Positions 2,100 through 32,000 of a DNA stretch of 32,000 nucleotides are shown piece after piece. The translations under genes and the position numbers were made by a program. This DNA is from Candidatus Saccharimonadota bacterium (GTDB lineage Archaea > Nanohalarchaeota > Nanosalinia > Nanosalinales > Nanosalinaceae), in the NCBI RefSeq assembly GCF_029232205.1, contig NZ_CP107255.1, positions 570,001 through 602,000 of the forward strand, in the 5' to 3' direction. The notes under the pieces are model-generated. The model searched no databases and had not been told where the DNA came from. It saw nothing but the letters and a program-made list of their open reading frames with translations. Every line of letters starts with the position of its first letter. Within the stretch, counting starts at the first letter, position 1.

Positions 2100-3023
2100 T
2101 TAGGCCTCTCCATCGTATTCAGGTCTTTTTTCCTGAATAGCGTTCTGGAGGTTGTGGGCTGCAAGGCCTGATGCTTCAATAGCGTTGTCAGTTTCTTCGA
2201 GTAGTCCTCCAACTTCTCCAATGTGGTGTCTGGCTGTTCTTGCAAGTGAAGCATATTCTTTGGCTTGCTGGGCCTTTTCTGCGTATGTTAGTGGGTCTCC
2301 TGATTCTGCTCTTTCTTCTAGGCTGTCGGCCATTGCTTCGTATTCTTCTGCCCACATTGTTCCTTCCATATTTTCCTGTGCTTCTCTCTTGGATTCTGCA
2401 GCTTCCTCTACACTTTTCTGATCTGCTTCGCTGAATTTGTGCTTGGTGTGATAGTCGTTTGCTGCCTGCTTGTACTCTGTTTCTACTTCTCTAAGTTCGC
2501 TTCTTATTTCAGAAGTATCTTCCCAGTCTATTTCATCAGAAAGCTCTACTTCTACGTCGAGGCCTGATGCTGTCTCCAGCGCGTTTTTGGCTTCTTCGTA
2601 AACTTCGTCTCCGTACTGTTCTACCTCTGCGTATACATCCTGTAGATTCTCTCTGAGATCCGTTATTTTTCCGTGAATAGATTCAAATCTGTCATACTGT
2701 GTTGTTTCATCCAGTGCTGTCTCGCTGTGTGCGTCCAGAGCAATTGTTGCTCCCTGAGCAACATTTATTGCATGTTCTGCTCCATTGGAGGCATGCTCTG
2801 ATAGTATTCTTGGATCTGTTATGGTTGTTGAGTCTCTATCAAGGCTTTCAGCTTGATCGTTTAGGTTTTCTCCAGCTCTCTGAGCTGATCTGGCCTCATT
2901 TCTTATTGTTCTCCAGTACTGCTCTACATCTGCAGGATCCTGGTTTGCCGTATTATTTTCCTCGCCGTCTCCGCCGAGTAGTCCATTTAGAAGATCTCTC
3001 ATAGAATGCCATGAAACAAGCAA
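2100..3023 (-). CDS. hypothetical acidic coiled-coil-like protein (307 aa)
   Basis: Long ORF with E/A/Q-rich helical sequence, lying 34 nt downstream of the LamG gene stop. The true start may be the internal Met at 3002 (MRDLLNGLLGG...). Confidence 0.7.
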   Translation of the reverse strand: MLVSWHSMRDLLNGLLGGDGEENNTANQDPADVEQYWRTIRNEARSAQRAGENLNDQAESLDRDSTTITDPRILSEHASNGAEHAINVAQGATIALDAHSETALDETTQYDRFESIHGKITDLRENLQDVYAEVEQYGDEVYEEAKNALETASGLDVEVELSDEIDWEDTSEIRSELREVETEYKQAANDYHTKHKFSEADQKSVEEAAESKREAQENMEGTMWAEEYEAMADSLEERAESGDPLTYAEKAQQAKEYASLARTARHHIGEVGGLLEETDNAIEASGLAAHNLQNAIQEKRPEYDGEA

Positions 3024-3056
3024 TATTAAGTATGTTACTTTGAAGTTGCAACAGAT

Positions 3057-5528
3057 CTACTTGAATGCTAGCCGTGCAATCTCCTGATCTGCAAGTTTTT
3101 CATCATATATCCGGAACTCATCAATCTCCATGTTAGTGAACTTGGCCGGAGAATTGTCGCCAGCCCTACCTATCTGTATTCCTCCGCCAGAACGATCTGC
3201 ATCCGTCAAGCTGGTAGTTGAGAGATATGCTGAACCATCAAGAGATCCGTCTATAAACAGTTTGACAAGGCCTGAACTTTTTTCACGTGTGAAGGCCACG
3301 TGATGCCATCTTCCGTCAGCTACTTTTCTGTCAGAGTTTACGTACCTATCGCTGCTGCCGTTTCCATTACCGTAGACAAGTTTTCCTTCACTATCTATTC
3401 CGAATCCCCAGTCATTTGCAGGGCCTGAGTTTTCCTGATGTGCTATGGCCTTGGTCTGCCAGTGATTGGTTCCTGCCCCATCAGTAGTTTTGATCCATGC
3501 AGAAACAGTCTGGTTGTCAGGTAGTTTGTGGTCTATCTGGATGTAGTCATCGCTGCCGTCAAAACTGTATGCATTGGTGTAGAAGAGGCCTTCGCTGCCT
3601 GTTGATTTTCCAGATGTGAAATTGTATCTTTCTACGGCTCTGGCTTTCTGTGTTTCAAATGCTTTCTCTACCTCGTCCTGGCCCCACGCTGTTGTTGAGA
3701 TTGTCATTTCATCGATTTTGCCGTAGAATCTGTCTGTGTTGCCAGAGTCCGAGAGGCTGCCGATGAATGCTGGACCTGTCGTGTTTTTCATTGTGAAGTC
3801 TTTCTGAGTGCTTGTTTCCAGTGTTCCGTTCACATAGATTTTAAGAAACCCTCTGTTGGCGTCTGCTACGGCCACTACATGATACCATCTCTGCCATTCC
3901 GGGAAGCTGTAGTCTATAGCGTTGATCTGGTCGTTAGTGGTGTTTCTTACGTCGAAGGAGAATTCCTTACCGTTTCTGGGGATTCCAAACAGGTACTTAT
4001 CCCAGTCATCTCCGAAGAAGGCCTGCCAGTCATCCACTCTTTTTTCCGGATATACCCATGTAGAAATAGTGATTTCCTGGTTGTCCGCAAGTTGATCTAC
4101 CTGTCCGAGAGAAGCGTATGAGTCTCCGCTGAAGTTTAGTGCCTGGCCTGAAACTCCGTCAACCCATGAAGTGTTAGTCAGTGTGGCATCCACGTTGTTC
4201 TCTGACTGATCCTCTGTGGTTGAGCCTGCTCCATCGTTCATTCTCCACGCTGCAACTGTACCTCCCGAATGGAAATCTCCCATTAGAGGCCCTGTTGACA
4301 CCACTTCCTGCGTTGTTCCGTTCATTTTCCATCTTTCAAGATAGTTCTTCCCAATATAATCCTGTTCAGATAGTTTCTGTATATCTGTAGCTGTTAGATC
4401 CTGGTCATAGACTGTTACTTGGTCGACTGAGCCGTGGAAAAGCGGGCCTCCAATGATCATCTCGTTGTCTGCGCCGTAGATCAAGTTGTCAGAAGGGTTT
4501 ACCGATTTGTCCCCTACTTTTTCTCCGTCAAGCCAGAGCTCTGACCTGTTGTCAGAGGTGAACTGGATCACTGCATGATGCCAGCCCGTGCTTAGAGAGG
4601 CCTCAGATTCAACTCCATCCGTGAATCCCTGAAGTTTGCCATCGTAAGTTCTTAGCCCGGCCTGTCTTCCGATTCTCACTATCTGGCCGCTTTTCATGTA
4701 AAGTGCTGTACTGTAACGAGGCCTGAAGTTCCAGTAGTACGCGTTCTTGTTTCCTGCACCCTTGCTTCCGATAAGCATGTATGAGGCCCTGTAGTGGTTT
4801 GCTCTGACGAACTCTGACTTGTTTGTGACGTCTTCTCCGTTGGCGCCGTAGTCTTTCAGTGTTTCCTCCCATTCCTCCAGTACTGCTGCATCATCGCAGT
4901 TTCCTGCTGGATGAGGCTGATCATCGGTTATCATTATCATTTTCGTGCCTTCTGGCTGGCTCTGAAGATACTGCGACATGTTTCCTGCGGCATTGCAGGC
5001 ATCTCCACCATATCCGTCTCCTCCGTGAGTATCAATCTCTTTGGTCTCATTCAGGCCCCATGAGCTGTTCATTTTAGCGATTGTAAACCCTCTAGCGCAG
5101 TTGTCGCAGATCTGATTTCCGTTTATATTCATGAAGCTGTCATAGGCAGGACTGAAGTTTCCAGCTCTACCGTAGTCATTGTGGCCCATTGATCCAAGTC
5201 TGAATCTTGTATCTGAAAAATTCCTGACTTTAAACCATGTTGAAACTGCGTAACCGTTGTCTATCGAAAGATTCAGGCGGCCTGAATGATTGACAGAAAT
5301 GTAGTCATCTCTTCCATCCATTCTGAAACTTCCTCCTTTCAGCATGTTATCCTGGCCATTTTGAGAGTAGTCGAGTGTACTCATTCCTGTGCTGTCGAAA
5401 CGGTAGTAGTTCTGAAGGCCTGCAGATGCAAATGAAGCCATTAAAATTGCAAGAGCAAGGGCCACTGCAAACTTGGTGTTTCTCACATTCAGAGATGGCT
5501 TTTTATCAAATAAATTAGTTGTATTCAT
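3057..5528 (-). CDS. secreted multi-LamG (laminin-G / concanavalin-A-like lectin fold) protein, 823 aa, with nested FAM3/ILEI-like domain
   Basis: N-terminal signal/TM segment (KFAVALALAILMASFASAG). Three LamG_3-type modules, each with a W-H/Y-H-V core strand (GWHHAVIQF, RWYHVVAV, RWHHVAFT) and a terminal motif (VDQVTVYDQDLTATDIQKL; IDEMTISTTAWGQDEVEKAF; IDEFRIYDEKLADQEIARL). Many N-x-S/T sequons. Its ATG overlaps the upstream gene's TGA (ATGA at 5525-5528). Confidence 0.85.
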   Translation of the reverse strand: MNTTNLFDKKPSLNVRNTKFAVALALAILMASFASAGLQNYYRFDSTGMSTLDYSQNGQDNMLKGGSFRMDGRDDYISVNHSGRLNLSIDNGYAVSTWFKVRNFSDTRFRLGSMGHNDYGRAGNFSPAYDSFMNINGNQICDNCARGFTIAKMNSSWGLNETKEIDTHGGDGYGGDACNAAGNMSQYLQSQPEGTKMIMITDDQPHPAGNCDDAAVLEEWEETLKDYGANGEDVTNKSEFVRANHYRASYMLIGSKGAGNKNAYYWNFRPRYSTALYMKSGQIVRIGRQAGLRTYDGKLQGFTDGVESEASLSTGWHHAVIQFTSDNRSELWLDGEKVGDKSVNPSDNLIYGADNEMIIGGPLFHGSVDQVTVYDQDLTATDIQKLSEQDYIGKNYLERWKMNGTTQEVVSTGPLMGDFHSGGTVAAWRMNDGAGSTTEDQSENNVDATLTNTSWVDGVSGQALNFSGDSYASLGQVDQLADNQEITISTWVYPEKRVDDWQAFFGDDWDKYLFGIPRNGKEFSFDVRNTTNDQINAIDYSFPEWQRWYHVVAVADANRGFLKIYVNGTLETSTQKDFTMKNTTGPAFIGSLSDSGNTDRFYGKIDEMTISTTAWGQDEVEKAFETQKARAVERYNFTSGKSTGSEGLFYTNAYSFDGSDDYIQIDHKLPDNQTVSAWIKTTDGAGTNHWQTKAIAHQENSGPANDWGFGIDSEGKLVYGNGNGSSDRYVNSDRKVADGRWHHVAFTREKSSGLVKLFIDGSLDGSAYLSTTSLTDADRSGGGIQIGRAGDNSPAKFTNMEIDEFRIYDEKLADQEIARLAFK
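4749..5138 (-). other. FAM3/ILEI(PANDER)-like domain inserted in the first LamG module (residues ~131-260)
   Basis: By-eye similarity to my recollection of human FAM3B. Window: ARGFTIAKMN..IDTHGGD..TKMIMITDDQP..LKDYGA..YRASYMLIGSKG. FAM3B: ARGINIAIVN..CFDMYEGD..LLFMVTYDDGS..IEALGS..FRSSWVFIAAKG. The motif order is the same in both. Confidence 0.5.
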
Positions 5529-7264
5529 TTCATCGCAAGGTCCTGTATCTCGGCCTCTGAAAGCGTTTTGTTGTAGATTCTGATTTCATCGATCGATAGC
5601 TGGTTGTAGTCGGAGAAAGGCCTGAATCCTGAAATTGAGGAGATACTCATTTCTGGTGTCTGTACTGAATCTGTTTTCTCTCCGTTGATATAGAGCTGGA
5701 TTTCTCCATTGGATCTTCTGAATACGTAGTTGTTCCATTCCTCTAGAGCGGACGAAGGCCTTTGAGTGTCAAGCACGGAGTAGTTTCCTGTGTATACTCT
5801 GAATTCGTCTTCCACCAGCTGCATCTGCGGGTTTCTCTTGTACACTTCTGGATCTGCGTAGTATCCGAACGAAGTGCTGTCATCATCGTCGTAGTATAGT
5901 CTGTAGTACTCTTTTCGCGGTTCTTCGTTTCCATCGCTTCCCAGAATGTAAAGCTGGTATTTGTCAGGATCAGGTTCTGGTTTTCGCACCCATTCTGAGT
6001 CCCAAGAATTACCCCATACAGGAATACTGTTGGTCTTGGCCCAGTACTTCAGATATAGATAGTTTTCATCGCCAGCAAAATCCGGGTAATCATCCTGGTA
6101 GAACCGGCCTGTGAATATGTCCTCAAATCCTCCGTTGGAAGATGCGTTTGCGAGTCTGACATCTGAGAATCCGTCCTGAGCTCCAAGGTCTTCTACATCG
6201 CCTCTCCAGTCCGTTGACTCGTTGAAGATATTCTGATTGGCCTGGTTTGAGAAGATAGTATATCGGCCTTTTCCCGAGGTTTTCATCCAGAAGCTTACAG
6301 AATGGTTTTCAAAGGAGAAGCTGGAGGTTCCAATACCGTTTTCTGGTTCGAGAGTTACTGCATTGCTGGAGAATATTCCTTCTGAGGCCTTTGCACGAGG
6401 CACGTCATTATTCCATCCTTCGTATTGGTTGTCTTTGTTGAAGCTGTTTGGTGTTGCTGTTATCTGGTTGGAGGTATCTCCGAACAGGCATGGCCTCTCG
6501 TAGTACAGGTGGCAGCCCTGATATCCTTCATCAAATCTCTGGAAGAGCACGAGATCAGTATTGTCGACTTCTTGGCCCCTGTAGAGTTTTTCTACTTCAG
6601 ACTCCGCTAGAGTTCTGTTGTATACGCGGAAGTCGTCGATTTTAGGCCTTATATTATCTCTAATTGTGAGATCTGATACCATGTCCGCAAGTTTGCATCC
6701 TGGGCCTCCCTGATCCTGAACTTCTCCATCGGTGTATTCTTTTATTGTGGTTCCGTCGTATGTTACAGTGTATAGGTGCCATTCGCCGGGTGTTGCCTCC
6801 ATATTCCGGTTTCTGGCCCAGAATCCTCCTCCGTTGTATCCGCATTCATTTGTCTCTGCTATCCATCGCGTGTATATGCTTTCGTTGGAGTTGGCCATTT
6901 CAGCTCTTGCACTCTTGGTTGCGCCGGTTGCGTTTTCCGCTGTCCAGCTGACGACTGTATCCCATCCTCCTCCGCTGTCGTCATGTTTGATCCAGAAGGC
7001 CATGGTAAAAGGTGCGCTGCTGAAGGTTGACTGTAGTTCAGGAGTGCTGTTGATTGTTATTGCAGAACCGTTAAGCAGTATTGATCTTCCTTCTATAACA
7101 GTATCATTTCCAAGGCCTGAAGAGTCAGCAGCCTGGCTAACGTTGTCTAATCTGAAATAACCTGTTAGGCTTTGCTGATTGGAGGCCTGGACCGATATTC
7201 CTGCGCCAAGAAGTAAAAGGCCTGAAATTAGTAGGACAGTTGTTGTTCTCGGGTTAGGCCTCAT
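5525..7264 (-). CDS. secreted LamG-domain protein (579 aa)
   Basis: Signal peptide (TTTVLLISGLLLLGAGISVQA). LamG_3-type module ends DDFRVYNRTLAESEVEKLY and IDEIRIYNKTLSEAEIQDL. WHLYTVTY core strand. Translationally coupled to the 823-aa gene by a 4-nt overlap. Confidence 0.85.
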   Translation of the reverse strand: MRPNPRTTTVLLISGLLLLGAGISVQASNQQSLTGYFRLDNVSQAADSSGLGNDTVIEGRSILLNGSAITINSTPELQSTFSSAPFTMAFWIKHDDSGGGWDTVVSWTAENATGATKSARAEMANSNESIYTRWIAETNECGYNGGGFWARNRNMEATPGEWHLYTVTYDGTTIKEYTDGEVQDQGGPGCKLADMVSDLTIRDNIRPKIDDFRVYNRTLAESEVEKLYRGQEVDNTDLVLFQRFDEGYQGCHLYYERPCLFGDTSNQITATPNSFNKDNQYEGWNNDVPRAKASEGIFSSNAVTLEPENGIGTSSFSFENHSVSFWMKTSGKGRYTIFSNQANQNIFNESTDWRGDVEDLGAQDGFSDVRLANASSNGGFEDIFTGRFYQDDYPDFAGDENYLYLKYWAKTNSIPVWGNSWDSEWVRKPEPDPDKYQLYILGSDGNEEPRKEYYRLYYDDDDSTSFGYYADPEVYKRNPQMQLVEDEFRVYTGNYSVLDTQRPSSALEEWNNYVFRRSNGEIQLYINGEKTDSVQTPEMSISSISGFRPFSDYNQLSIDEIRIYNKTLSEAEIQDLAMK

Positions 7265-22049: not shown

Positions 22050-24974
22050 TTATGGTCGGGCCATGAAGAGGTAGGCTGTGCTGGATAGTAGCATGAGGAC
22101 TACGATCTGTGTGAGGCCTATTCCTGGCACTGCTTCTCCTGAGCCCTGTGTGCTGGAGATTGTCTGGTTGATTGGTTCTGTGACGTTTACTCTGATGCTG
22201 TCTGATCCTGTGATTGTTCCGTCTTCGGATTCTGCGTAGACTGTGAGTTGTGTGTTGTCTACGTTCTGGTTTCCTCCGTACAGGCTCATTGTGTATGTTC
22301 TTGATGATTCTGGGCCTAGTGTTACCTGGAAGGTGTCGCTTTTTGTGGATTCATCCTGTGAGAAGAATGACCATGGGTCGTTCCAAGGTGTTGAGGTTGA
22401 GTCTCTGAGCTCTACGTTGAATGTGAGTTCTGTGTTTTCTACGTTGATTAGCTGGAACTGTGCGAGCCTTGAGGATCCTCTTGGTACCTGTACTTTGTCT
22501 TTTCTGAATACTACAGGCCATTCTTCGTACCAGGAACCTCCGTAACATGAGATTACTCTTGTATCTCCTCCCAGGTCGAAGTCTATCTGTGCTCCGGGCT
22601 GGTATAGTTTTCTTTTAGAGGTTCCTACTTCGGAATAGTGTTCTCCATCTAGTATGCATGCTTCGCTGTTTGATGCTACTCCGACTACAGAGTTGTTGGT
22701 ATCACATAGACTTGTGACACAGTCCTGTGTAACAAGATATTCTGAGTCATCGTCTCCTCCACAGAATCCTGGTGTTGCTATTGTATCGTTTGTAACACCG
22801 TTTCTCTGGTCTGTCGAACCTGTTGGTACTGGGCTTGTTGACCCCAGACTGTTTGATGAAGTGAAGGTCTGTTCTGGCCTTGAGTCAATATTTCTTGATG
22901 TTTCTCCTTTCAATGCTCTCTGCTCTTCGATAAACTGGTTGAAGTCATCATCTATACCGCCCTTGAAAGCTGCAGGATGCTCAGCGATTTGACCTTCGCT
23001 AAACCATCTTATGCCTTCAGGCCCGTAAACTGTGTTCTCTCGGCAAAGCCTCTCCTTGAAGTCCTGATCATACCATCTTGCGACTTCGTCGTCGTCTACC
23101 ATTGCGCAGACTTCTTTATCATTTTTGGCTCTTCCAAAGTCCTCATCAGGCTCGTCGGTCTGACGGTACTCCTCTCTTTCGAATATCTTTCTGCCTTCAG
23201 CGCTTGTATCAACACATACGTCCTGTGAATCAGCACATGCATATTTGCCGTCTCCTGCTATAGATCTCTTTGACTCTCCCATCTCTTCGAGCAGGTATTC
23301 TCTCCTATCATCTCCACACATAGGAGGTTCTAGCAGTGGAGTAGTTTCACCGACAGTACCATTACTGTTTATCTCTTCATCAACCACGTTATCTCCATCA
23401 TTATCCTCGCCATCTGCTTCCCCTTCAAAGTATACGTTACCATACATGACGTACGACCGCGGTGATCCATACCCGGAACGGTAGGTTATACCTGCGTTGT
23501 CATCAAGATTAAATCCTAATCCCATATCAGGGCCTGTAATATCGATATTGTAGACTAGCTTAGGCTGCCATCCGCCTACAATCAGATCATTCATAGAACG
23601 GATGTCATCAGGATCAATCCATACTCCATCCCCTTCCCTAACTTCTCCGAAAGCTCCGGTAAAGTTATCTGCCGCTATAGCTGCGAAAGAGTTACCAAAT
23701 ACTTTCGAGGTCTTGGAAACACTGTCAGAAGTAAATGCTCCTGGATCGCTTGGAACTGTTCGGAAAGAGCCCGAGTAATCCCTGTGGTAGTAGGTACCTC
23801 CATCGCTGCTGTATGTAGAGTGGTAAAGACCTCCCTGTCTTATCTGTGCATCCTGACCTGTAGGACCTGGAGGATAGGCCTCTCCTCTGTTGGAAATAGA
23901 CCAGTTAAGATGCCTTGTAATAGCCCATTGATCTGCGCTTCCCTGAGAGCCATCAGAATCAGTCCAGATACCGTAGTCAGCAGGATTATAGGCGCTGGTA
24001 TCCATTCCAGGCTCCAGCTGGTTGCTTGACTCTTCAAGCTTGTTTACATAACCCTGATAGTAGTAATTAGTGCCACTTGCACTGTCGCCAGTAGGCATGT
24101 AATCCTCATCTCTCACGCCTACTCCAGTATAAGTCTTCTCTGCGGCCTTATCAACCGTAAAACTCCAGGTATCAGTAGTACGGCACTGACCTGTCCCATC
24201 ACAGGCCTCAATAAACCAGTTGTAAGTTTCGCCATCATTGAGGCCTTGCCAGTACGCTGTAACGGTGTCGCCGCTTGCAATATCTTTTGACTCTATAAGA
24301 GAACCGTCAGCCTGTTTGAACTCTACAGTCATCGAGTCATCATTTGGATCTGTAATTCGCACTGATAGATTGGTTGTTGTTCTTGTAACAGTTGCACCGT
24401 CCTCAGGAGTTCTGAAAGACGGCGTGTTCGGTTTATCTGCGCTTGAGGTAACTTTAACATCATCGATCCAGACCTGCCAGGATCTATCCTCTGGCTTGCT
24501 GCCACAGAAGCTAGAACTACTGATGCTCCCTGCTGTTAAAGTAAAATCTTTATCTGCTGACTCTACATTAGCCTCGTATGATCTCCAGCCTGAATCATAG
24601 CTGTTCCCTGACCGAACTCTATCAATAAGCTCTCTTACACCATTGGAATCCTCAATAAAGATTGTTCCAGTACCCCAGCTATCAAGCTGAATCCTGTAGT
24701 CAAACTCAAGGTATTGTGGCTGCCTGTTAAAATCAAAGGTCTTGCTTATACCTCCCTCACCACATATCTCATAACGATTTCCGGCCGTAGCTGATTCACC
24801 TGGAGTAGAGTAGCTTCCTGTAGTGTCAGCAGTACATGTATCCATCGCACGTCCTGTAGAAGAGCAACTCCAATCACTTTGAGTGCCGGAGAAATCCTCC
24901 TCATACATCTGTCCTGTCGCCGGAGCTGCAAAAAGCGCGACCATCAACAGGACTGTGATCAAGGCCTTTTTCAC
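22050..24974 (-). CDS. very large exported surface protein (974 aa) with an FN3/Ig-like domain, two Cys-framed modules, a CARDB-like C-terminal domain and a C-terminal membrane anchor
   Basis: GTG start overlapping the upstream gene's TGA (GTGA). Signal peptide MKKALITVLLMVALFAAPATGQ. FN3-like segment PNTPSFRTPEDGATV...YNWFIEACDG...WSFTVD. Asp-rich GEADGEDNDGDNVVDEE. C-terminal VPGIGLTQIVVLMLLSSTAYLFMARP. Confidence 0.85.
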   Translation of the reverse strand: MKKALITVLLMVALFAAPATGQMYEEDFSGTQSDWSCSSTGRAMDTCTADTTGSYSTPGESATAGNRYEICGEGGISKTFDFNRQPQYLEFDYRIQLDSWGTGTIFIEDSNGVRELIDRVRSGNSYDSGWRSYEANVESADKDFTLTAGSISSSSFCGSKPEDRSWQVWIDDVKVTSSADKPNTPSFRTPEDGATVTRTTTNLSVRITDPNDDSMTVEFKQADGSLIESKDIASGDTVTAYWQGLNDGETYNWFIEACDGTGQCRTTDTWSFTVDKAAEKTYTGVGVRDEDYMPTGDSASGTNYYYQGYVNKLEESSNQLEPGMDTSAYNPADYGIWTDSDGSQGSADQWAITRHLNWSISNRGEAYPPGPTGQDAQIRQGGLYHSTYSSDGGTYYHRDYSGSFRTVPSDPGAFTSDSVSKTSKVFGNSFAAIAADNFTGAFGEVREGDGVWIDPDDIRSMNDLIVGGWQPKLVYNIDITGPDMGLGFNLDDNAGITYRSGYGSPRSYVMYGNVYFEGEADGEDNDGDNVVDEEINSNGTVGETTPLLEPPMCGDDRREYLLEEMGESKRSIAGDGKYACADSQDVCVDTSAEGRKIFEREEYRQTDEPDEDFGRAKNDKEVCAMVDDDEVARWYDQDFKERLCRENTVYGPEGIRWFSEGQIAEHPAAFKGGIDDDFNQFIEEQRALKGETSRNIDSRPEQTFTSSNSLGSTSPVPTGSTDQRNGVTNDTIATPGFCGGDDDSEYLVTQDCVTSLCDTNNSVVGVASNSEACILDGEHYSEVGTSKRKLYQPGAQIDFDLGGDTRVISCYGGSWYEEWPVVFRKDKVQVPRGSSRLAQFQLINVENTELTFNVELRDSTSTPWNDPWSFFSQDESTKSDTFQVTLGPESSRTYTMSLYGGNQNVDNTQLTVYAESEDGTITGSDSIRVNVTEPINQTISSTQGSGEAVPGIGLTQIVVLMLLSSTAYLFMARP
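22053..22133 (-). other. PGF-CTERM-like sorting/anchor tail (P-G-I-G + TM helix + short basic end)
   Basis: Last 27 residues are AVPGIGLTQIVVLMLLSSTAYLFMARP. Haloarchaeal PGF-CTERM has P-G-F, then a TM helix, then basic residues. Here Phe is replaced by Ile. Confidence 0.45.
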
Positions 24975-27900
24975 TGGTACCCCACCAACTGCCAGAAGAA
25001 GCTGAAGAAGACCGGAGTCTTCCCCTCTGTCTGAGTTTCCTGATCATCGCAGCCAGTAAGCAGAGGCCCACAGTTGTCTTCAAGAGTTACTCCGATGTTT
25101 TCTCCGGAGCCCTGGCCTTTAGGATTGTAGTCAGGATGGTAAGGATTTTCGTTCTGACGCCAGTAAAATGCTATCTGTGAGGCGTTATCAGGATCTCCTC
25201 TCTGACTGCTATCAATTAGATCATGGCCATTGCCACTGCTTCTCAAGTATTCGTTTACTCTTTCGTTGTCAAGATCGTACCATTCTCCACCGACCTCTTC
25301 AACGGTACCATCGTCATCATAGTCATAGTTATCATACGTTACATCATCACCAGGATCATCGGCTGGAAGAGTCTCCTCGTAGACAATACCGTCCTGCGTA
25401 AAGCTTTCACCACTGCTATCGATCGCAAGACAGACTTCTTTATCAGGAGAATAACCTCCTTCCTCATAATCCGAGTAAGCCTCTGTACCAACGGTCCTGA
25501 CAGTTCCCTCAGGAACATCTTCTCCATACCACAGACAATCAGTAACCCTGTCAGCAGTACCTTCAAGGTGATGGCTCTTAATAGGGCCTTCATTAACTTC
25601 AGGGCCCTCCATCGCTATCCAGAACTCTTCTGTAGTATCTCCAGCACACCGCTTATCTGAACTCTGTGTAGGGCTGTCGGAGTCAGATCCATAGTTTGAA
25701 CCGATTGCTGCATCTGGATCAAGTTCCTGGAACATCTTGCAGACTCCAAGAGACTGATTGGTATCCTGAATATTGCTTTCGAAAGTTACTGCTGTGGGAT
25801 AGGCCTGGCTGCCTGCCTGATAGGAAGGATCTGTCGGGTTATCCCAGTTGTTGATATTCCGAGGCCTTATATCCAGAGCTCCTACACAGTGAGTGAAAGG
25901 ATCGCCGCAGCCATTAGTATTGATACTTACATGGCCCAGCGCATCTGCAGGCTGAACAATATCCATAGCGCCACCGCTGTTCGTCTCAGTATTCATGAAC
26001 CTGTTACTGACTCCCTGAATCTCAACCTGGCCGTTTCCAAGATAACCTCTTCTCTGCAGAATTGCCATATAACCATCGGACTGGCCCTGAGGCCCGTCAA
26101 CATCCCATGATTGGAAGTAATCTCTGACAGATTCAAATGCATCACCGTCTACCCTCATATGGTATGAGCTGGAGGAAATGGCTTCGTCATTACCTAGCAT
26201 ATTGTTATCAGTATCTACAGCATAGGCATAGTAGGAATCACCGTTGAAGGCGTTGTACTTAATATTTGAGCGGGTGTAAGCCTCATCTCCATACTTGAAA
26301 GTGTCGCCCTCAAAGAGTGCATCAGTAGGGAACATTGGTGCGTAAGAAGGATTCTCCGCAGGATTCAAATCGAATACTTTCTCAGTATGAAGCTCAAGAT
26401 CCTCGTACCGGTAGGTGATTGTGTTGCTTGTCTGGCCCGTAGCAATATCCTGATTTGAAATCGGCCCGACAGTATCAACTGAAGGACTATCACTACAGCC
26501 AATGCTACTATCGCAAGATTCTTCTTCTGTTTCACTCAGACACGAGTCGTCATCTACTTGTTCGGTCTCGTAACCTGGATGATGAGTTACTTCTACAGAT
26601 AGCTGATTTAGATTTGTACTTTCCTTACTATGTTGATGGCTTCCGCTGCTGTCTGCATAATACTGCTCGTTATCATTGGTTGAAACAGTGGTAGTTGTCT
26701 CGCTCTTTAGAGTGTATTTTGTATCAGTATCTTGATCTATACTTGTACACTTCTCGGTACCCGTACCAGAGCAGTTAGCTCCAGAACACTGATCAACAGA
26801 ACCTCCGTCCTCGCCCCAAGTCTCCACATTCTTATCACCAGTAAGATCATAGTCTGTAACTGATGCATCTGATTCCGAAGAACCGATATAAGACTCTCCA
26901 ACTTTTTCCGGATATACCATCCAAAGCTCATCAGGTACACTATCCCCGTCATCATCTTTCAGATAGTAATCAGGAACATCCTCCCATTCCTGATCCTGGA
27001 CAACCTGATCATCAACCTCACCAGCATCAGCCTGTGTGCCACTCTGAAGGTCGGCCGTGTACGGATCAGAACCACTGATATCATCTGTTTTCTGGCCCTG
27101 TGCCTCTGGGGCTATAAGTCCTGATCCGGAGTTACTAAACTTGTATTCAATAGTATCGTCAGTGTCATCGTTACTGTTCTTTGAATTTAGATATTCTCCA
27201 TTGTTTGCATTATTGTTAGAATCGCCAATAGACACACCGTTAGCATTATTGGCATCCCATTGACCAATATTACTGTTAAATCGATCAGAGAGAGTCTCTG
27301 AGGACTGGCTCTTAGTCGTTCCAGCATCGTCAGGAAGACCGTAGTCCTCAGGACAGTCAAGGTTATTCTCATCACCTCCTCTTACCGCATCACCACACTG
27401 AGAGCCATCGCCGGTAGTAGTATCATCATGTGGAGCATCAATCAACTCTGCAGAACCATCTTCTACAGCAGTAGTCGTGGAACCTGGCATGTTTCCTTCA
27501 TGACGGGACTCGCTAATACTTATTGTCTCACCTCTCAAAACCCCCGCAGCCCAGTCATTAGAACCTTCAACATAGGTCTCATTAATTTGATCAGTATCCA
27601 GAACCTGGTCAGGACTGACAGTTACAGATGAACCGTTCTGAATTACCTCTGCACCGTAGAAAATAGAGGAGTCATCTTCTGTTGGAGATGAAAGATACTG
27701 GCCGAAGACCCAGGAAGCATCCAGGTCGTAGATATTGGCCTCCGAATTATCATATTCATAAGGTGGAGAACACCCTGGATCCGGGCCGCTAGCTCCAGCC
27801 TCTTGCCAGTTAGGAGTTCCATCATTATCACTGTCAGCTCCCTCTCCATCAACCAAACCATCACCATCATTATCATTTCCATCCAAGCATGCGGAAGGTT

Positions 27901-28063
27901 GTGCAGGAGAATCTGGCGGAGAAGTGCCGGTATCCTTAGCGCCGCCAGTGAATTCATAAGAAGAAACAAGGCCAGCAGCGGTCAAGAACAAAAGGACTAC
28001 AACTAGAGCTTTTCCTACATTCATACAATTCATAGGTGAGACCCTGAATAAAAAACCTCTCAA
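24971..28063 (-). CDS. very large secreted acidic protein (up to 1030 aa) with an N-terminal Asp-rich metal-binding-type motif and a C-terminal Cys-framed module
   Basis: The maximal ORF starts at TTG 28063. The more likely start is ATG 28024 (MNVGKALVVVLLFLTAAGLVSS, a signal peptide), which has a TATA-like ttttttatt about 27 nt upstream. D/S/T/G/N-rich with scattered Cys. Stop overlaps the start of the 974-aa gene. Confidence 0.85.
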   Translation of the reverse strand: MRGFLFRVSPMNCMNVGKALVVVLLFLTAAGLVSSYEFTGGAKDTGTSPPDSPAQPSACLDGNDNDGDGLVDGEGADSDNDGTPNWQEAGASGPDPGCSPPYEYDNSEANIYDLDASWVFGQYLSSPTEDDSSIFYGAEVIQNGSSVTVSPDQVLDTDQINETYVEGSNDWAAGVLRGETISISESRHEGNMPGSTTTAVEDGSAELIDAPHDDTTTGDGSQCGDAVRGGDENNLDCPEDYGLPDDAGTTKSQSSETLSDRFNSNIGQWDANNANGVSIGDSNNNANNGEYLNSKNSNDDTDDTIEYKFSNSGSGLIAPEAQGQKTDDISGSDPYTADLQSGTQADAGEVDDQVVQDQEWEDVPDYYLKDDDGDSVPDELWMVYPEKVGESYIGSSESDASVTDYDLTGDKNVETWGEDGGSVDQCSGANCSGTGTEKCTSIDQDTDTKYTLKSETTTTVSTNDNEQYYADSSGSHQHSKESTNLNQLSVEVTHHPGYETEQVDDDSCLSETEEESCDSSIGCSDSPSVDTVGPISNQDIATGQTSNTITYRYEDLELHTEKVFDLNPAENPSYAPMFPTDALFEGDTFKYGDEAYTRSNIKYNAFNGDSYYAYAVDTDNNMLGNDEAISSSSYHMRVDGDAFESVRDYFQSWDVDGPQGQSDGYMAILQRRGYLGNGQVEIQGVSNRFMNTETNSGGAMDIVQPADALGHVSINTNGCGDPFTHCVGALDIRPRNINNWDNPTDPSYQAGSQAYPTAVTFESNIQDTNQSLGVCKMFQELDPDAAIGSNYGSDSDSPTQSSDKRCAGDTTEEFWIAMEGPEVNEGPIKSHHLEGTADRVTDCLWYGEDVPEGTVRTVGTEAYSDYEEGGYSPDKEVCLAIDSSGESFTQDGIVYEETLPADDPGDDVTYDNYDYDDDGTVEEVGGEWYDLDNERVNEYLRSSGNGHDLIDSSQRGDPDNASQIAFYWRQNENPYHPDYNPKGQGSGENIGVTLEDNCGPLLTGCDDQETQTEGKTPVFFSFFWQLVGYQ

Positions 28064-28095
28064 CTGAAAACAGCACAGCCTCTCTTAGGAGAAAG

Positions 28096-28103
28096 ATATA
28101 AAA
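28096..28103 (+). promoter_or_regulatory. TATA-like box (atataaaa) in the 75-bp divergent spacer upstream of the lipoprotein gene
   Basis: AT-rich octamer 36-45 nt upstream of the two candidate TTG starts (28139, 28148). An SD-like gaggg (28134-28138) sits 9 nt before the second TTG. Confidence 0.3.
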
Positions 28104-28138
28104 ACCTGCGTGACGTTATTTCCTAGTAACAACGAGGG

Positions 28139-28210
28139 TTGTCTATATTGAAAAGAAGAGGATTTCTAGCCGCAACAGGAACCGCAATCGCAACAGGCCT
28201 AGCCGGATGT
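28139..28210 (+). other. Tat signal peptide plus lipobox
   Basis: MSILKRRGFLAATGTAIATGLAGC contains the S/T-R-R-x-F-L consensus plus L-A-G-C, the classic haloarchaeal Tat-lipoprotein arrangement. Confidence 0.7.
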
Positions 28211-29830
28211 AGTGGTGTAACAGGAGGAAATAATAATAATAACCGCGAAGGTTCTACCAGCAAAACCAATATCTCTGTAAGTATCTCTACTGAGGCCGAA
28301 CCCTCACAGCTACCTTCTATCTGGAACGATCAGAGTATCGAAGACTTTCAGGCAGAGTTCTCCGTTGAGACCAGCGGGGGCCCAACACAGGCAACAGTCT
28401 CAAATGGAAAAGTAGAGATCAACCAGGAATCAGAGCAGTGGAACAGCAACACAGTAACAGTACAGCCAGGCCAGATGAACTCTGGAGAACAAGAATTCAC
28501 AGCAACAGCCGAGAAAAACGGAACACAGGCCCAAGATACTACAACAGCCACCAAACCAACTCCTGGCAACTACAAAGTCGACGTAGTGCCAGAGAGAAAC
28601 GAAGAACTCCGAAGCACAATCGAAAACAACTCAGACGAAGAAGATTACTTGGAGGCCCGCGGCAACTTCGTCGAACAAGACCCAGTATTCGATACTTACA
28701 GCAGCCACAAAGCCGTAGGATTCGACAAACTCGGAATCGACCTAGTCGCACGAGAATGGAGACACGACAACGACTACGAAAGCCTAGAAACTGGTAGTCC
28801 AGAAGCATCCCGAGAATTCATCCAAAGCATAGGCACCGACACCGGAAACCCTGATATACAGGCAATAAAAAACGGAAACTCAGGAACAACTTGGTACCCA
28901 AATGGCAACTTCAGCCAGAGAGACGCAGGACACTTCGACTACCAAAAATTCGCCAACGCACAAACAGTAGGAGAAGCACTCGACCAAGTGCATCCATACT
29001 ACTTCAACTGGCAATCAGACATACTCGGCAGAGAACCAACCTCCGCAGTCGACTTCATCGACGCACCAGTCCTCGAACAGGCCATCGAACAGAAAAACAA
29101 TAATGACTTGGAGGTACATGCCTGGGACTTCGACCTCGATGAACACGGAAACGGCCTCATCTACGGAAAGAACGCGGATGGCAGCGACGAACTCCGCATC
29201 ATGGAGACAGTCACCAACCCAGTAACAGCATCACCAGCAAATGTCCACGAACAACTACACCCACTAGTTGAGGACTCAAACTACCTCAACCCAGAACACG
29301 ACGAATTCAACCGGTACTGGCACCCACTCAGATTCGGATGGGAAGAACACAGCAACAGCACACGATGGAACTTCGAAGAAGAGAAACGGCGAGCAAGCCA
29401 AATGATTCAAAACATCGCCACTTCTGGACGCCTAGCCCGCACATCAGGCGAAGGCTCCGGAATGGAAACAACAGAAACAGTAGCACCAACAACAGAATAC
29501 CTCCAAGACTTCACAGAAAAACTGAGAAACTACAACCAAAACGATGCAGAATTCCAGCAACTACACAACCAAGCCAAAATAGCCAACGAACTGGTTAGAA
29601 GAGACAGTAAAGAAAATTTCGTAATCTATGGCGATACGGAGAATCCGCAGTACGCGGTAGTAGAAGATGATGAAGTTATTGAGGATATCTGGGAGGATGA
29701 GGATGGCCAGTATGATGATTTCAACCAGTTCCTCCGCGACAACCCTTCATACTCAATGAGCACAGAAGAAATCGATGCCACACTAGAAGGAGAACAAACA
29801 GAAGACCTCAGCCAGCAAACGCTGGCCTGA
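28139..29830 (+). CDS. Tat-exported lipoprotein of unknown function (563 aa)
   Basis: TTG start, or the in-frame TTG at 28148. Twin-arginine motif KRRGFLAA followed by the lipobox LAGC (Cys24). Thr/Gln/Asn-rich linker and an acidic C-terminal tail. No further Cys. Confidence 0.85.
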   Translation: MSILKRRGFLAATGTAIATGLAGCSGVTGGNNNNNREGSTSKTNISVSISTEAEPSQLPSIWNDQSIEDFQAEFSVETSGGPTQATVSNGKVEINQESEQWNSNTVTVQPGQMNSGEQEFTATAEKNGTQAQDTTTATKPTPGNYKVDVVPERNEELRSTIENNSDEEDYLEARGNFVEQDPVFDTYSSHKAVGFDKLGIDLVAREWRHDNDYESLETGSPEASREFIQSIGTDTGNPDIQAIKNGNSGTTWYPNGNFSQRDAGHFDYQKFANAQTVGEALDQVHPYYFNWQSDILGREPTSAVDFIDAPVLEQAIEQKNNNDLEVHAWDFDLDEHGNGLIYGKNADGSDELRIMETVTNPVTASPANVHEQLHPLVEDSNYLNPEHDEFNRYWHPLRFGWEEHSNSTRWNFEEEKRRASQMIQNIATSGRLARTSGEGSGMETTETVAPTTEYLQDFTEKLRNYNQNDAEFQQLHNQAKIANELVRRDSKENFVIYGDTENPQYAVVEDDEVIEDIWEDEDGQYDDFNQFLRDNPSYSMSTEEIDATLEGEQTEDLSQQTLA

Positions 29831-29855
29831 GCCCTAAAAAACTTCTGTCTCCTTC

Positions 29856-32000
29856 TTAGTTTCCGTTTTTCAGGTAGTCAGATATTTCACTGGCTCCCAT
29901 CTTGTCGAAGCTGTAGCTCAGGTTCTGCTGCCACATCTCATTCATCTTCTCGACCTGGCTGCTAATTACTCTCCGAGTGAGATCTGATTTCTCTACGTCT
30001 AGAGGGAACGAACAACCTCCACACACTGCCTGCTCATCAAACCAGGATTTCTGTATGTTGTCATTGAAAGAACCTTTTAGCAAGCTTTGCGCACGAGTCT
30101 GCGCCTTAGCTACATCATCAGTAGATCTCACATCAAGATTTCCTTCACCAGTAATTACTGCGCCGTTGGAGTTGGTAAACTCGAGGCGGCAGGAATACAC
30201 ATTGGTATTTATCTTTCCAACAAGAGGGACTGGCACCTGAGGGTTAGTTCCTACCCCAGTAACCTCCTTCGCAAACCAATCTTCCTCGCGTGTAGAAGGA
30301 TCCAGAGAAGGCCTCTCTGAAAGCTCTCCATCCCAGCATAGAGCCCTGATAGACTCTATTGTAGCAGCCTGATCATTATCAGCATCCTCCTTGGCTTCAT
30401 AATAGGTAGTAAGGAAACTGCTACTTGTTCTAAACTCATATGGCATTATGAAGAATCCTGCAGTATCAGGATTTTCGTTTCCTGTCGGTTCAAATGCGTA
30501 GGCATCAAGATCCCACTGAATATCACCAGTACACTCCCAAAACTGGCCTGTATATCCCCATTGGAGGCCTGGTTCGCAGGTTGGGTAGAATCCTCCGTCG
30601 AAGACACTGTCTCTTAGTACTGATACATCGTTTTCTTGAATGTTTTCTGCGGTTCCTAAGACTCCTGCAGTGTATTGGCCTGTTGCGTTGCTTGGGTTCC
30701 ATACTTGTCTGATTGCTGTTTCGTCGGTGTCGTCTACTGCACGTGTGTATGCTTGTCCTCTTGAGATGTTGAGTTCGTCGTATTTTGAGGCGTTGTGTGT
30801 GTAGGGTCTTTGGTATGTGTCTCCAGTTGAGCCTTCTAGGTATCTTAGTTCTGCTGCGTGGATATGGTCGAATCTTACGTTGTTGAATCCTGAGGTTGTT
30901 GCAAAGCTTGTTCCTTTGAACTCGGCATTTCCTAGAGGTATGGCTTCTTTAGGCACGTAGTACTTGACTGCTAGTGCTGTTTCTGGTGCTGAAGTGTTGT
31001 GGAATGTTCCTAACCGGCAGTCGCCATCTCCAGTACACCTTCTCTGTGGATCACCGTAGCCAGGATAAGTTCGTTGACGCATGTCGTAGAGGCATGCTGT
31101 GTCTTTCTCTGTTGTAACTGGGTCGTTGCCGGTGTAGCTGTTTTCTACAGCATCATATCCTTCACAGAGAAAGATATCGGGCTCTCCGGTACGGACACTT
31201 GAGTAGACGTTGCCATAATCACAGTCAGTGGTGGCATCCGTAAAGGCGGCTCCTGAGTTTTGATCTGCAAACACCACTTTAACGCCGTCACTTTCCCTGA
31301 TGCCTACAGTCGGATCTGCACAGTTATTTTCCACATAGGGCAACCAAGAGTTTGGTTGATTTCCTCTCCAGTCTTGCCCATTTCCTAGCACATCGCACCT
31401 GAATCGACCGTTATCTGTATCTACTATTTCTCCATCCATAGAGCCACGGCAAATATGGAACAACCTATTGCCTTTCAGTATTTCTGTATCCGGGCTGTAT
31501 GTTGAACTATCATCGTGAGCTGGCGTACAGGAGTCAAAGTTATTTTCGAAGGCCGTGCATGCGCCTTTATCCTGACCTATAACATATTCCATGTCTCCGA
31601 AGTTCTGATCCCACACATCCTGTGCACCTAGGTTATCTCCCAAGTTGTGGTTGTTTGTGAAAACTTCTGATGTAGAACCTATATCCGATAGAGAAGTAGC
31701 CTCATGACCTAGTATTTCACCTGGTTGAGGCCTATATCTTCCGTAGTCATCCTCTCCATCAGGCCAGGCTTTCCAGTCTGTCTCTTGAAGAAGTATATCT
31801 CCCTGATTTATGTCGTTTACTCCGTGAATATTGCTGTTTCCAGGACTGTTGTAGAAAGGCTCCCTATCGTTCGTTAAAATAAAGTCTCTTATTTTATTCG
31901 CATTTACGTCCATCTCAACATATAGATATGCTCCTTTATTTGCACTTACACGGTCTTTAGGCTCTACAGTTAGATCAAAGGTACCTACTGTAAAGGACTC
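29856..32000 (-). CDS. large Cys-rich extracellular-type protein, 5'-truncated by the window edge (more than 714 aa)
   Basis: The ORF track starts it at ATG 31913, but I translated 31914-32000 in the same frame and found no stop (...ESFTVGTFDLTVEPKDRVSANKGAYLYVE-MDVNANK). The listed N-terminus has no signal peptide, so the gene most likely begins beyond 32000. More than 20 Cys, acidic, N-x-S/T sequons. Confidence 0.8.
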   Translation of the reverse strand, partial: ESFTVGTFDLTVEPKDRVSANKGAYLYVEMDVNANKIRDFILTNDREPFYNSPGNSNIHGVNDINQGDILLQETDWKAWPDGEDDYGRYRPQPGEILGHEATSLSDIGSTSEVFTNNHNLGDNLGAQDVWDQNFGDMEYVIGQDKGACTAFENNFDSCTPAHDDSSTYSPDTEILKGNRLFHICRGSMDGEIVDTDNGRFRCDVLGNGQDWRGNQPNSWLPYVENNCADPTVGIRESDGVKVVFADQNSGAAFTDATTDCDYGNVYSSVRTGEPDIFLCEGYDAVENSYTGNDPVTTEKDTACLYDMRQRTYPGYGDPQRRCTGDGDCRLGTFHNTSAPETALAVKYYVPKEAIPLGNAEFKGTSFATTSGFNNVRFDHIHAAELRYLEGSTGDTYQRPYTHNASKYDELNISRGQAYTRAVDDTDETAIRQVWNPSNATGQYTAGVLGTAENIQENDVSVLRDSVFDGGFYPTCEPGLQWGYTGQFWECTGDIQWDLDAYAFEPTGNENPDTAGFFIMPYEFRTSSSFLTTYYEAKEDADNDQAATIESIRALCWDGELSERPSLDPSTREEDWFAKEVTGVGTNPQVPVPLVGKINTNVYSCRLEFTNSNGAVITGEGNLDVRSTDDVAKAQTRAQSLLKGSFNDNIQKSWFDEQAVCGGCSFPLDVEKSDLTRRVISSQVEKMNEMWQQNLSYSFDKMGASEISDYLKNGN

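Follow-up and report, generated by a model that had tools for sequence, protein, structure and literature searches.

An exported cysteine-rich protein of Nanohaloarchaeota, split in some genomes and fused in others, as a candidate envelope component of Candidatus Nanohalovita haloferacivicina

We analyzed a stretch of 32,000 nucleotides (nt), hereafter the window (assembly GCF_029232205.1, contig NZ_CP107255.1, positions 570,001 to 602,000), which exact protein matches assign to Candidatus Nanohalovita haloferacivicina BNXNv. This archaeon lives as an ectosymbiont on Haloferax lucentense and has a genome of 1.047 Mb (PMC10266531). Our focus was the region between 22 and 32 kb, where four open reading frames (ORFs) encode exported proteins, named here by their length in amino acids (aa): P974, P1017 (P1030 when read from an upstream start), P821, and a predicted Tat lipoprotein, P560/563. 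P1017 and P974 are considered here as the two halves of a candidate envelope protein. The original prediction, made from the window alone, had grouped all four as a cluster of very large proteins and a candidate host-attachment or cell-surface system. The ORFs and their export signals are as it described (Table 1), but "very large" is relative, since the proteins measure 560–1017 aa against an 8,880-aa giant surface protein encoded elsewhere in the BNXNv genome (PMC10266531).

Table 1. Genes and sequence features of the 22–32 kb region (window coordinates).
Feature	Position	Strand	Description
Intergenic region past P974	21977..22049	-	T-rich tract, then TTTAAATA box before ProRS; read from sequence
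P974 ORF	22050-24974	-	974 aa, GTG start
P974 layout	22050..24974	-	signal peptide; add-on 22-285; core 286-~540; Cys-rich ~541-830; Ig-like ~830-935; sequon-bearing linker; VPGIG; TM
P974 C-terminal stalk and anchor	22053..22169	-	sequons NVT and NQT; (V/I)PG(I/M)G; one TM helix; short tail
P974 lineage-specific N-terminal add-on	24120..24911	-	residues 22-285; beta-rich jelly-roll-like plus FN3/Ig-like
GTGA stop/start overlap	24971..24974	-	TGA of P1017 over GTG of P974; GGTGGGG SD-like motif 7 nt upstream
P1030 ORF	24971-28063	-	1030 aa from TTG
P1017 ORF	24971-28024	-	1017 aa from ATG
P1017 N-terminal acidic Cys-bounded repeat	27770..27889	-	C46...C85, CLDGNDNDGDGLVDGE...DPGC
Divergent intergenic region	28025..28147		TATA-like TTTTTTATT (minus strand) for P1017, GATATAAAAA for the lipoprotein gene; read from sequence
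P563 lipoprotein ORF	28139-29830	+	563 aa
P560 lipoprotein ORF	28148-29830	+	560 aa from second TTG, as annotated
P821 fragment	29856-32000	-	C-terminal 714 residues; leaves window; full protein P0022, 821 aa

The three large proteins, P974, P1017 and P821, carry Sec-type signal peptides, P974 in addition has a transmembrane (TM) helix, and the lipoprotein starts with KRRGFLAATG...LAGC, a twin-arginine motif followed by a lipobox. The isoelectric point (pI) lies at 4.0–4.3 for all four, and the three large proteins contain 16, 18 and 18 cysteines (Cys), in contrast to 0–6 in neighboring genes; most of these Cys are kept across the respective families despite an overall identity of 25–40%. The acidic and Cys-rich character given in the original prediction is therefore confirmed, but the richness in N-x-S/T sequons is not, as their numbers in the four proteins (8, 5, 5 and 5) are at or below those expected from composition (8.4, 11.3, 7.1 and 8.0). 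Sequence and profile searches against Pfam, NCBIfam and the PDB returned no family match for the four proteins, enzymatic or other, in agreement with the enzymatic motif that had been found missing. Their relatives likewise have no match in Pfam, NCBIfam or PDB sequences, except for a C-type lectin in database protein P0004 and a sub-threshold repeat in a fused orthologue, described below. When P974, P1017, P821 and the fused protein P0017 were compared with the models of major cell surface glycoproteins in Pfam and NCBIfam, no match appeared even at E up to 1. In addition, no ATPase or repeat domain (Pfam) and no tandem repeats (repeat search) were detected in the four proteins.

Comparison with database proteins revealed that P1017 and P974 are joined in other genomes. 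In seven proteins of 1379–1625 aa (P0017–P0021, P0005 and P0006) the N-terminal part aligns to residues 14–1023 of P1030 and the C-terminal part to residues 286–972 of P974; P0017 among them is SVXNc_0418 of Candidatus Nanohalococcus occultus. When one genome was scanned for each GTDB species, 17 loci emerged, all of which lie in Nanohaloarchaea, and with other loci of relatives the census reached 19 distinct loci. Ten of these are fused (a single frame of about 1,400–1,650 aa) and nine are split, the latter including the window itself and one paralogous locus. The break always falls at one junction, after ...FFSFF... and before (R/K)DEDY-x-P-x-G. Wherever the protein is split, the second ORF encodes a signal peptide of its own, its start overlaps or abuts the upstream stop, and a Shine-Dalgarno-like (SD-like) GGTG/GAGG motif lies 7–12 nt upstream; the 4-nt overlap is present in five loci, namely the window, L001, L002, L005 and L019. 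Twelve homologues of P1017 were found in the database, all from Nanohaloarchaea, and for P974 blastp recognized nine direct homologues, again all nanohaloarchaeal, and five further fused proteins. The alignments indicate that P1017 and P974 are two halves of one Nanohaloarchaeota-specific protein. Translational coupling of the two genes, which had been proposed from the GTGA overlap, is strongly supported, because they are fused elsewhere (Rosetta-stone argument). The T-rich tract and the TTTAAATA box between P974 and the prolyl-tRNA synthetase gene (ProRS) suggest that the pair is probably a bicistronic unit apart from ProRS.

Some nanohaloarchaea contain a paralogous pair (L020, the second locus of DAL-WCL_22_74C1R; P0008/P0009), whose second protein consists of FN3 and the conserved core (P974 ~189–520) and then ends, without the Cys-rich half or the membrane anchor.

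The start sites of both halves could be narrowed down. For P974, a start at the GTG at 24974 is favored both by the homologues and by the 4-nt overlap, which is conserved; the NCBI entry (P0001, 964 aa) begins at Met11 and thereby loses the positively charged beginning of the signal peptide (window 24945–24974). For P1017, the start is probably the ATG at 28024 rather than the TTG at 28063, because the TATA-like TTTTTTATT, situated on the minus strand ~25 nt upstream of this ATG, falls inside the longer 1030-aa version; the NCBI protein P0010 corresponds to the 1017-aa form. Both TTTTTTATT and GATATAAAAA are predicted promoter boxes, read by eye.

P1017, the subunit without an anchor, has a pI of about 4.05, and 17 of its 18 Cys are conserved at 80% or more. 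Two invariant ones, C46 and C85, enclose the acidic repeat near the N-terminus, which probably binds calcium. Its DG-x-DNDGD motif has a second copy in P974 (nt 23373–23414), which also surfaces when the proteins are compared with themselves by blastp, and at the DNA level a direct repeat (D1) pairs 23373–23414 with 27842–27883 at 79% identity. The fused orthologue P0017 reaches E = 4e-8 and 32.7 bits, below the curated cutoff of 41, with NF033662, the model of an acidic double-disulfide repeat; P1017 of the window did not match this model, owing to an insertion that breaks up its repeat.

In P974, the Cys-rich modules (~541–830) carry CGDD-x-x-EY motifs and are followed by a C-terminal immunoglobulin-like (Ig-like) domain spanning about residues 780–935. 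The protein ends in a sequon-bearing stalk, a (V/I)PG(I/M)G motif and a TM helix, placed at residues 954–972 in the AlphaFold2 (AF2) model. All 12 family members with a C-terminus keep both motif and helix, in most cases with sequons ahead of them. The PGF-CTERM model (TIGR04126, NCBIfam) matched neither the whole proteins nor the C-terminal tails of seven of them scanned separately, with E values allowed up to 10. The AF2 models, built from 14-sequence alignments, are too poor for fold assignment, with a mean predicted local distance difference test score (pLDDT) of 49 for P974 and 36.7 for P1017; within P974, the FN3 and the C-terminal Ig-like domains alone reach 60–84. The FN3/Ig-like domain named in the original prediction is seen in this model as a sandwich at residues ~195–280 (pLDDT 64–83 over 200–280). 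The profile and structure searches that it had suggested yielded no family: Foldseek of the P974 model against the PDB gave generic Ig-like, PapD and macroglobulin-domain matches alone, at TM-scores of at most 0.11.

The core of P974 contains 21–26 invariant residues between positions 308 and 487 (alignments A1 and A2), many of them charged (E321, D348, R405, K421, K424, D454, D456, D478 and D483). Such a stretch could be an active site, and the proteins would then form an extracellular enzyme or a nutrient-capture complex, processing polysaccharides or peptides with a catalytic domain too divergent to be recognized. The HEQLH sequence in the lipoprotein of the window and the presence of an orthologue in the Nanohalobium secretome, described below, would fit with this. 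We consider it very unlikely, however, as no enzyme family was matched by sequence or profile in Pfam, NCBIfam or the PDB, relatives of the lipoprotein do not retain HEQLH, and the invariant DPDD and DLTGPD-G-G motifs would seem to resemble loops that bind calcium more than catalytic sites. A structural role is also the better fit for an abundant protein with a membrane anchor.

Residues 22–285 of P974 are absent from the fused forms, which align to P974 from residue ~286 onward. The add-on is all-beta in the secondary structure of the AF2 model, and Pfam Ig_7 matches it weakly (E = 0.09). At the same position, the other split forms have nothing, a C-type lectin (P0004, Pfam E = 1.8e-13) or other repeats (L019). 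The comparison indicates that residues 1–285, comprising the signal peptide, a jelly-roll-like part and FN3, are an addition of the Nanohalovita clade, and the add-on is a candidate ligand- or host-binding module.

The surroundings of the pair are conserved. Four lineages (Nanohalobium, Nanohalococcus, the M3_22 genome and the Nanohalovita clade) share the gene order SpoU methylase, DUF1512, P821-like gene, one or more exported genes on the reverse strand and the P1017/P974 protein, and have ProRS, an amidohydrolase and FttA close by. The P1017/P974 locus is a phylum-wide syntenic core locus beside ProRS and not a variable island. The guanine-cytosine (GC) content is flat across the region (0.44–0.48), and genomic islands were not found in the BNXNv genome (PMC10266531), so that the compositional mosaicism proposed in the original prediction was not borne out. 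Identity to the M3_22 genome nevertheless differs among the genes, with 94% for ProRS, 82% for the amidohydrolase, 72% for P1017, 70% for P974, 63% for P563 and 35% for P821. Among close relatives, the part of P974 from residue 286 to 750 is 84–100% identical, and the C-terminal 230 residues are the most variable.

These figures bear on the possibility that the locus encodes a dedicated host-recognition or attachment system, in which Cys-rich adhesins sit at the contact site with Haloferax and evolve fast to track the host surface. The organism is an obligate ectosymbiont and lives attached to Haloferax (PMC10266531), and the identity of 70–72% for P1017/P974 where ProRS has 94%, the variable C-terminus of P974 and the rapid, mosaic evolution of P821 described below would all be expected of such a system. 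The same applies to the binding-type add-ons of the anchored subunit, i.e., jelly-roll and FN3 here and the C-type lectin in P0004. Yet P1017/P974 is a core protein at one syntenic locus throughout the phylum, across different hosts (Halomicrobium, Haloferax and Halorubrum-type systems), residues 286–750 of P974 hardly vary among close relatives, and its orthologues are expressed at a housekeeping or structural level. No adhesin-type domain was detected by Pfam in the four proteins, and the published attachment candidates are LamG/PKD and giant SPEARE-type proteins, not these genes (PMC10266531). A dedicated attachment system, which could coexist with an envelope role, is plausible but has less support, and for P1017/P974 a role in the envelope is more likely than that of a specialized device for host attachment.

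P821 is a secreted protein without an anchor; its signal peptide is known from the full-length P0022, and 11 of its 18 Cys are invariant. Its position is kept across the phylum, and a syntenic counterpart follows DUF1512 in L001, L002, L003 and Nanohalobium. With 35% identity to its M3_22 orthologue it is the fastest-evolving gene at the locus, and it is mosaic, being 72–96% identical to P0023 over the first ~550 residues and 38–54% beyond, with another pattern against L001. P821 is thus fast-evolving and mosaic, but the locus as a whole is not, and the description of a fast-evolving, recombining locus in the original prediction applies to this one gene. Neither Pfam nor the PDB nor profile comparison connected P821 with the P1017/P974 pair, and the idea that it is a remote homologue of P1017 or P974 was rejected, given hhalign probabilities of 24% and 2%.

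The lipoprotein belongs to an orphan family with 43 cluster representatives among 1.84 billion proteins, and it has no Pfam or PDB match. The RR..L and LAGCS elements are kept in the family consensus; against TIGR01409 it scores 11 bits, where the cutoff is 16.7. A function as a zincin metallopeptidase was ruled out, as HEQLH occurs in the window protein alone, whereas 25 relatives keep only the second His. All five named relatives belong to Halobacteria (a Haloarculaceae metagenome-assembled genome, Natronoarchaeum, Halosimplex, Haloarchaeobius and Halorarum). Among the nanohaloarchaeal loci, the gene is restricted to L001 and L002/L004, i.e., the Nanohalovita clade, with a weak match in L017, and its position is held by different reverse-strand genes in Nanohalococcus and Nanohalobium. 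Because it is clade-restricted and all its named relatives are haloarchaeal, the gene probably came from the host class and entered the locus between two surface genes that are themselves conserved.

With P821 unrelated to the pair and the lipoprotein restricted to one clade, the four genes do not make up one system as originally proposed. One could go further and regard them as four unrelated neighbors, in which the pair is a structural or scavenging protein that is exported but of little importance, neither P821 nor the lipoprotein depends on the others, and the genes cluster by accident. Besides the lack of a detectable relation between P821 and the pair, this explanation can draw on the haloarchaeal affinity of the lipoprotein, on the other genes found in its place in two genera, and on transcription that is divergent and convergent instead of forming one operon. 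It appears unlikely nonetheless, since the order of DUF1512, P821-like gene, exported reverse-strand gene and P1017/P974 is kept in four genera, the conserved members are all strongly expressed in the two organisms with data, and P1017/P974 clearly form one functional unit.

All expression data considered here are from orthologues in two other genera, Nanohalococcus and Nanohalobium. The ranks given here refer to the first ~163 genes listed for Nanohalococcus (one of seven table parts) and the first ~335 proteins listed for Nanohalobium (two of about seven parts). In the Nanohalococcus transcriptome, the fused SVXNc_0418 has 4033 reads per kilobase per million (RPKM) and SVXNc_0415, at the P821 position, has 4136, levels comparable to those of ribosomal proteins (~2,800–3,700) and FtsZ, with ProRS at 1,712; just 8 of the listed genes are higher. 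In Nanohalobium constans, LC1Nh_0457 (1499 aa) lies at the corresponding place in the locus and resembles the family over its N-terminal 430 residues. It was detected in the biomass with 73% coverage, 118 peptides and a protein abundance index (PAI) of 3.03, and in the secretome with 71 peptides and a PAI of 1.46. Its number of biomass peptides is unsurpassed among the listed proteins, when compared to 93 for the thermosome and 10–14 for annotated "S-layer domain proteins". LC1Nh_0455, at the P821 position, was detected with 86% coverage and 35 and 22 peptides, and the reverse-strand LC1Nh_0456 was detected as well. Relatives also have, and express, genes for an archaeosortase/exosortase and for Dsb-type oxidoreductases. 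An S-layer is visible on nanohaloarchaea by electron microscopy (EM) and cryo-electron tomography, without a protein assigned to it (PMC7443923; PMC11291902), and the nanohaloarchaeal literature examined contains no discussion of the P1017, P974, P821 or lipoprotein genes.

In the neighborhood of the pair, a SpoU/TrmJ methylase and DUF1512 are always located ahead of the P821-like gene (L001 3730–5627, L002 3675–5570 and L003 2646–4502). DUF1512 has an N-terminal hydrophobic segment and is very strongly expressed, with an RPKM of 4854 in Nanohalococcus and 59 peptides and a PAI of 4.58 in Nanohalobium. Farther upstream of DUF1512, a ~950-aa protein bears the annotation "putative major cell surface glycoprotein" in Nanohalobium, which indicates that the neighborhood of surface genes reaches past the window end. 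On the other side of the pair, the P974 orthologue of close relatives is separated from ProRS by a gene of 408–409 aa that resembles class-II aminoacyl-tRNA synthetases (L001 16268–17497; L002 16198–17424); the 32-kb window has no copy, and ProRS directly follows P974.

The lower density of the palindrome AGGCCT reported for the region was confirmed (1.1 against 2.6 per kb), but the recombining island deduced from it is not supported. Per synonymous opportunity, AGGCCT is used at 44% in the region against 58%, without a significant difference (Fisher p = 0.26), and it is rarer in the region because acidic proteins offer fewer sites able to encode the hexamer. In the window as a whole AGGCCT occurs 69 times, 11-fold more than the 6.2 expected from base composition, and fills 58% of synonymous opportunities in coding sequence. 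The excess is 7–10-fold in the two closest relatives (L001 and L002/L004) and absent from 16 other nanohaloarchaeal loci, and it is therefore an oligonucleotide bias specific to the Nanohalovita clade, which is not mentioned in the paper on the BNXNv genome (PMC10266531).

To place the pair among known surface proteins, we compared it with five systems. The Sulfolobales SlaA and SlaB are likewise encoded by adjacent co-transcribed genes, with a large unanchored subunit and a subunit ending in a TM helix, Sec signals, an implied 1:1 ratio and strong expression. The marks of such a pair, i.e., the 4-nt overlap, the SD-like motif and a TM helix in P974 alone, are present in P1017/P974 and kept in the split loci. 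In contrast, no sequence similarity to SlaA or SlaB was detected (Pfam; PDB by sequence and profile), the distal subunit comes first in P1017/P974, and its two proteins, which are halophilic, acidic and rich in Cys, lack a predicted coiled-coil stalk. Half of the relatives encode P1017/P974 as a single chain, a form that is, to our knowledge, not known for SlaA/SlaB.

The csg protein of Haloferax volcanii, which ends in PGF-CTERM and depends on the archaeosortase ArtA, shares with the pair a signal peptide, an acidic beta-sandwich ectodomain, a glycosylatable stalk and a Pro-Gly motif before the terminal TM helix, and archaeosortase genes are present in nanohaloarchaea. There is, however, no homology; P974 has VPGIG instead of PGF, a resemblance seen by eye that the PGF-CTERM hidden Markov model does not pick up, and P1017/P974 is twice as long, in two parts, with 34 Cys, while csg has almost no Cys. 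For the fused forms, SlpA of Clostridioides difficile provides an analogy to the junction, as one precursor gives rise to low- and high-molecular-weight subunits that stay associated as a proximal and a distal part. SlpA is bacterial, anchored to the cell wall by CWB2 instead of a TM helix, and unrelated in sequence, and in nanohaloarchaea cleavage of the fused form is a hypothesis. The best explanation, by analogy, is that P1017/P974 would work like SlaA/SlaB or, when fused, like the SlpA precursor, and yet be a member of neither family.

Two further groups of surface proteins are encoded in the same organisms. The SPEARE-type giants (BNXNv_0298, SVXNc_0300) are also exported, acidic, membrane-anchored, provided with Ig-like domains and proposed to face the host; at 5,000–9,400 aa, they consist of ~75 Ig-like repeats in tandem and, on the cytoplasmic side, a VirB4/TraG-like ATPase domain (PMC10266531). 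The proteins described here are smaller and have neither tandem repeats nor an ATPase domain, and the SPEARE-type proteins are absent from Nanohalobium, which has an orthologue of the pair. LamG/PKD secreted proteins of DPANN are published candidates for host binding (PMC10266531) and are described as strain-specific (PMC10266531; PMC7443923). The window encodes two of them at 3057–5528(-) and 5525–7264(-), again with a 4-nt overlap as in P1017/P974. They match LamG/Laminin_G_3 at E = 1e-58 and 2e-24, a domain for which Pfam gave no match in the four proteins, and unlike the pair, which is conserved phylum-wide, they are Cys-poor and enriched in sequons about twofold (19 against 9.0 and 12 against 6.7 expected). 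Together with the region between 22 and 32 kb, the LamG pair brings exported proteins to ~44% of the window, close to the 45% that had been estimated.

Taken together, we propose that P1017/P974 is a two-subunit, disulfide-stabilized major envelope protein of the S-layer type, at a probability of roughly 0.5, because it occupies a phylum-restricted single locus, its orthologues are strongly expressed, and it combines Sec export, a C-terminal anchor architecture, conserved Cys and acidic calcium-type motifs with Dsb proteins and archaeosortase in these genomes. In the proposed arrangement, both subunits would be exported by Sec, stabilized by the conserved disulfides and the acidic calcium-type motifs, and would associate 1:1 outside the cell. 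P1017 would be the distal soluble subunit, and P974 the proximal one, held by its C-terminal TM helix after VPGIG and the sequon-bearing stalk. Where the two are fused, one precursor chain would be made and possibly cleaved at the FFSFF | RDEDY junction. Together they would constitute the bulk of the proteinaceous surface layer seen by EM, and this layer would be the face shown to the Haloferax host.

Several points weigh against this proposal. Searches of Pfam, NCBIfam and PDB profiles did not connect the pair with a known S-layer protein by sequence or by fold, Foldseek matches are generic, the AF2 models are poor (pLDDT 49 and 37), and the PGF-CTERM model fails to recognize the C-terminus of the P974 family. 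The expression figures all come from orthologues in other genera, and LC1Nh_0457 was assigned as an orthologue from synteny, its length and its first ~430 residues. In Nanohalobium, 13 of the ~335 proteins exceed LC1Nh_0457 in PAI, and the secretome is dominated by LC1Nh_0225 (244 peptides, PAI 9). This hypothetical protein is modest in the biomass (13 peptides); it may compete for the role of envelope component, or may be a filament that is shed. S-layer annotations are also attached to other genes in these genomes (PMC10266531; Nanohalobium annotation), and lattice formation as well as the association of the subunits are points that we infer. Considering both sides, P1017/P974 would be best described as an uncharacterized, phylum-specific, anchored archaeal protein of putative surface-layer type, with an unusual and well-documented fused/split polymorphism.

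Under an envelope role, contact with the host would either follow from that role or be a function contributed by the N-terminal module that is specific to the lineage. The Nanohalovita anchor subunit would have gained jelly-roll and FN3 at its mature N-terminus, where another lineage has a C-type lectin, and this would be the most plausible site for binding a ligand or the host. P821 would be a separate, secreted, disulfide-rich protein, whose conserved position, co-expressed orthologues and fast, mosaic evolution are consistent with an exposed peripheral component. The N-terminal module of P974 and P821 are the best candidates for host contact, and the predicted Tat lipoprotein would be a clade-specific insertion of haloarchaeal origin outside the conserved unit. 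A tentative extension of the envelope proposal is that P1017/P974 could be the S-layer of Nanohaloarchaeota itself, a disulfide-rich, calcium-dependent lattice of two subunits made from a cleaved precursor or from coupled genes. Lectin-type modules would then have been gained repeatedly by the anchored subunit, which would turn the S-layer into the organ of host recognition, with P821 as a rapidly diversifying partner.

Nanohaloarchaea live attached to haloarchaeal hosts, and all exchange between them crosses the nanohaloarchaeal envelope. An envelope protein has not yet been identified for the phylum, and the literature centers on LamG/PKD and giant SPEARE-type proteins. Our analysis flags one surface lipoprotein as a probable acquisition from the host class. 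It also provides a concrete S-layer candidate with a defined subunit boundary, and a specific module, residues 22–285 of P974, that may serve in host binding.

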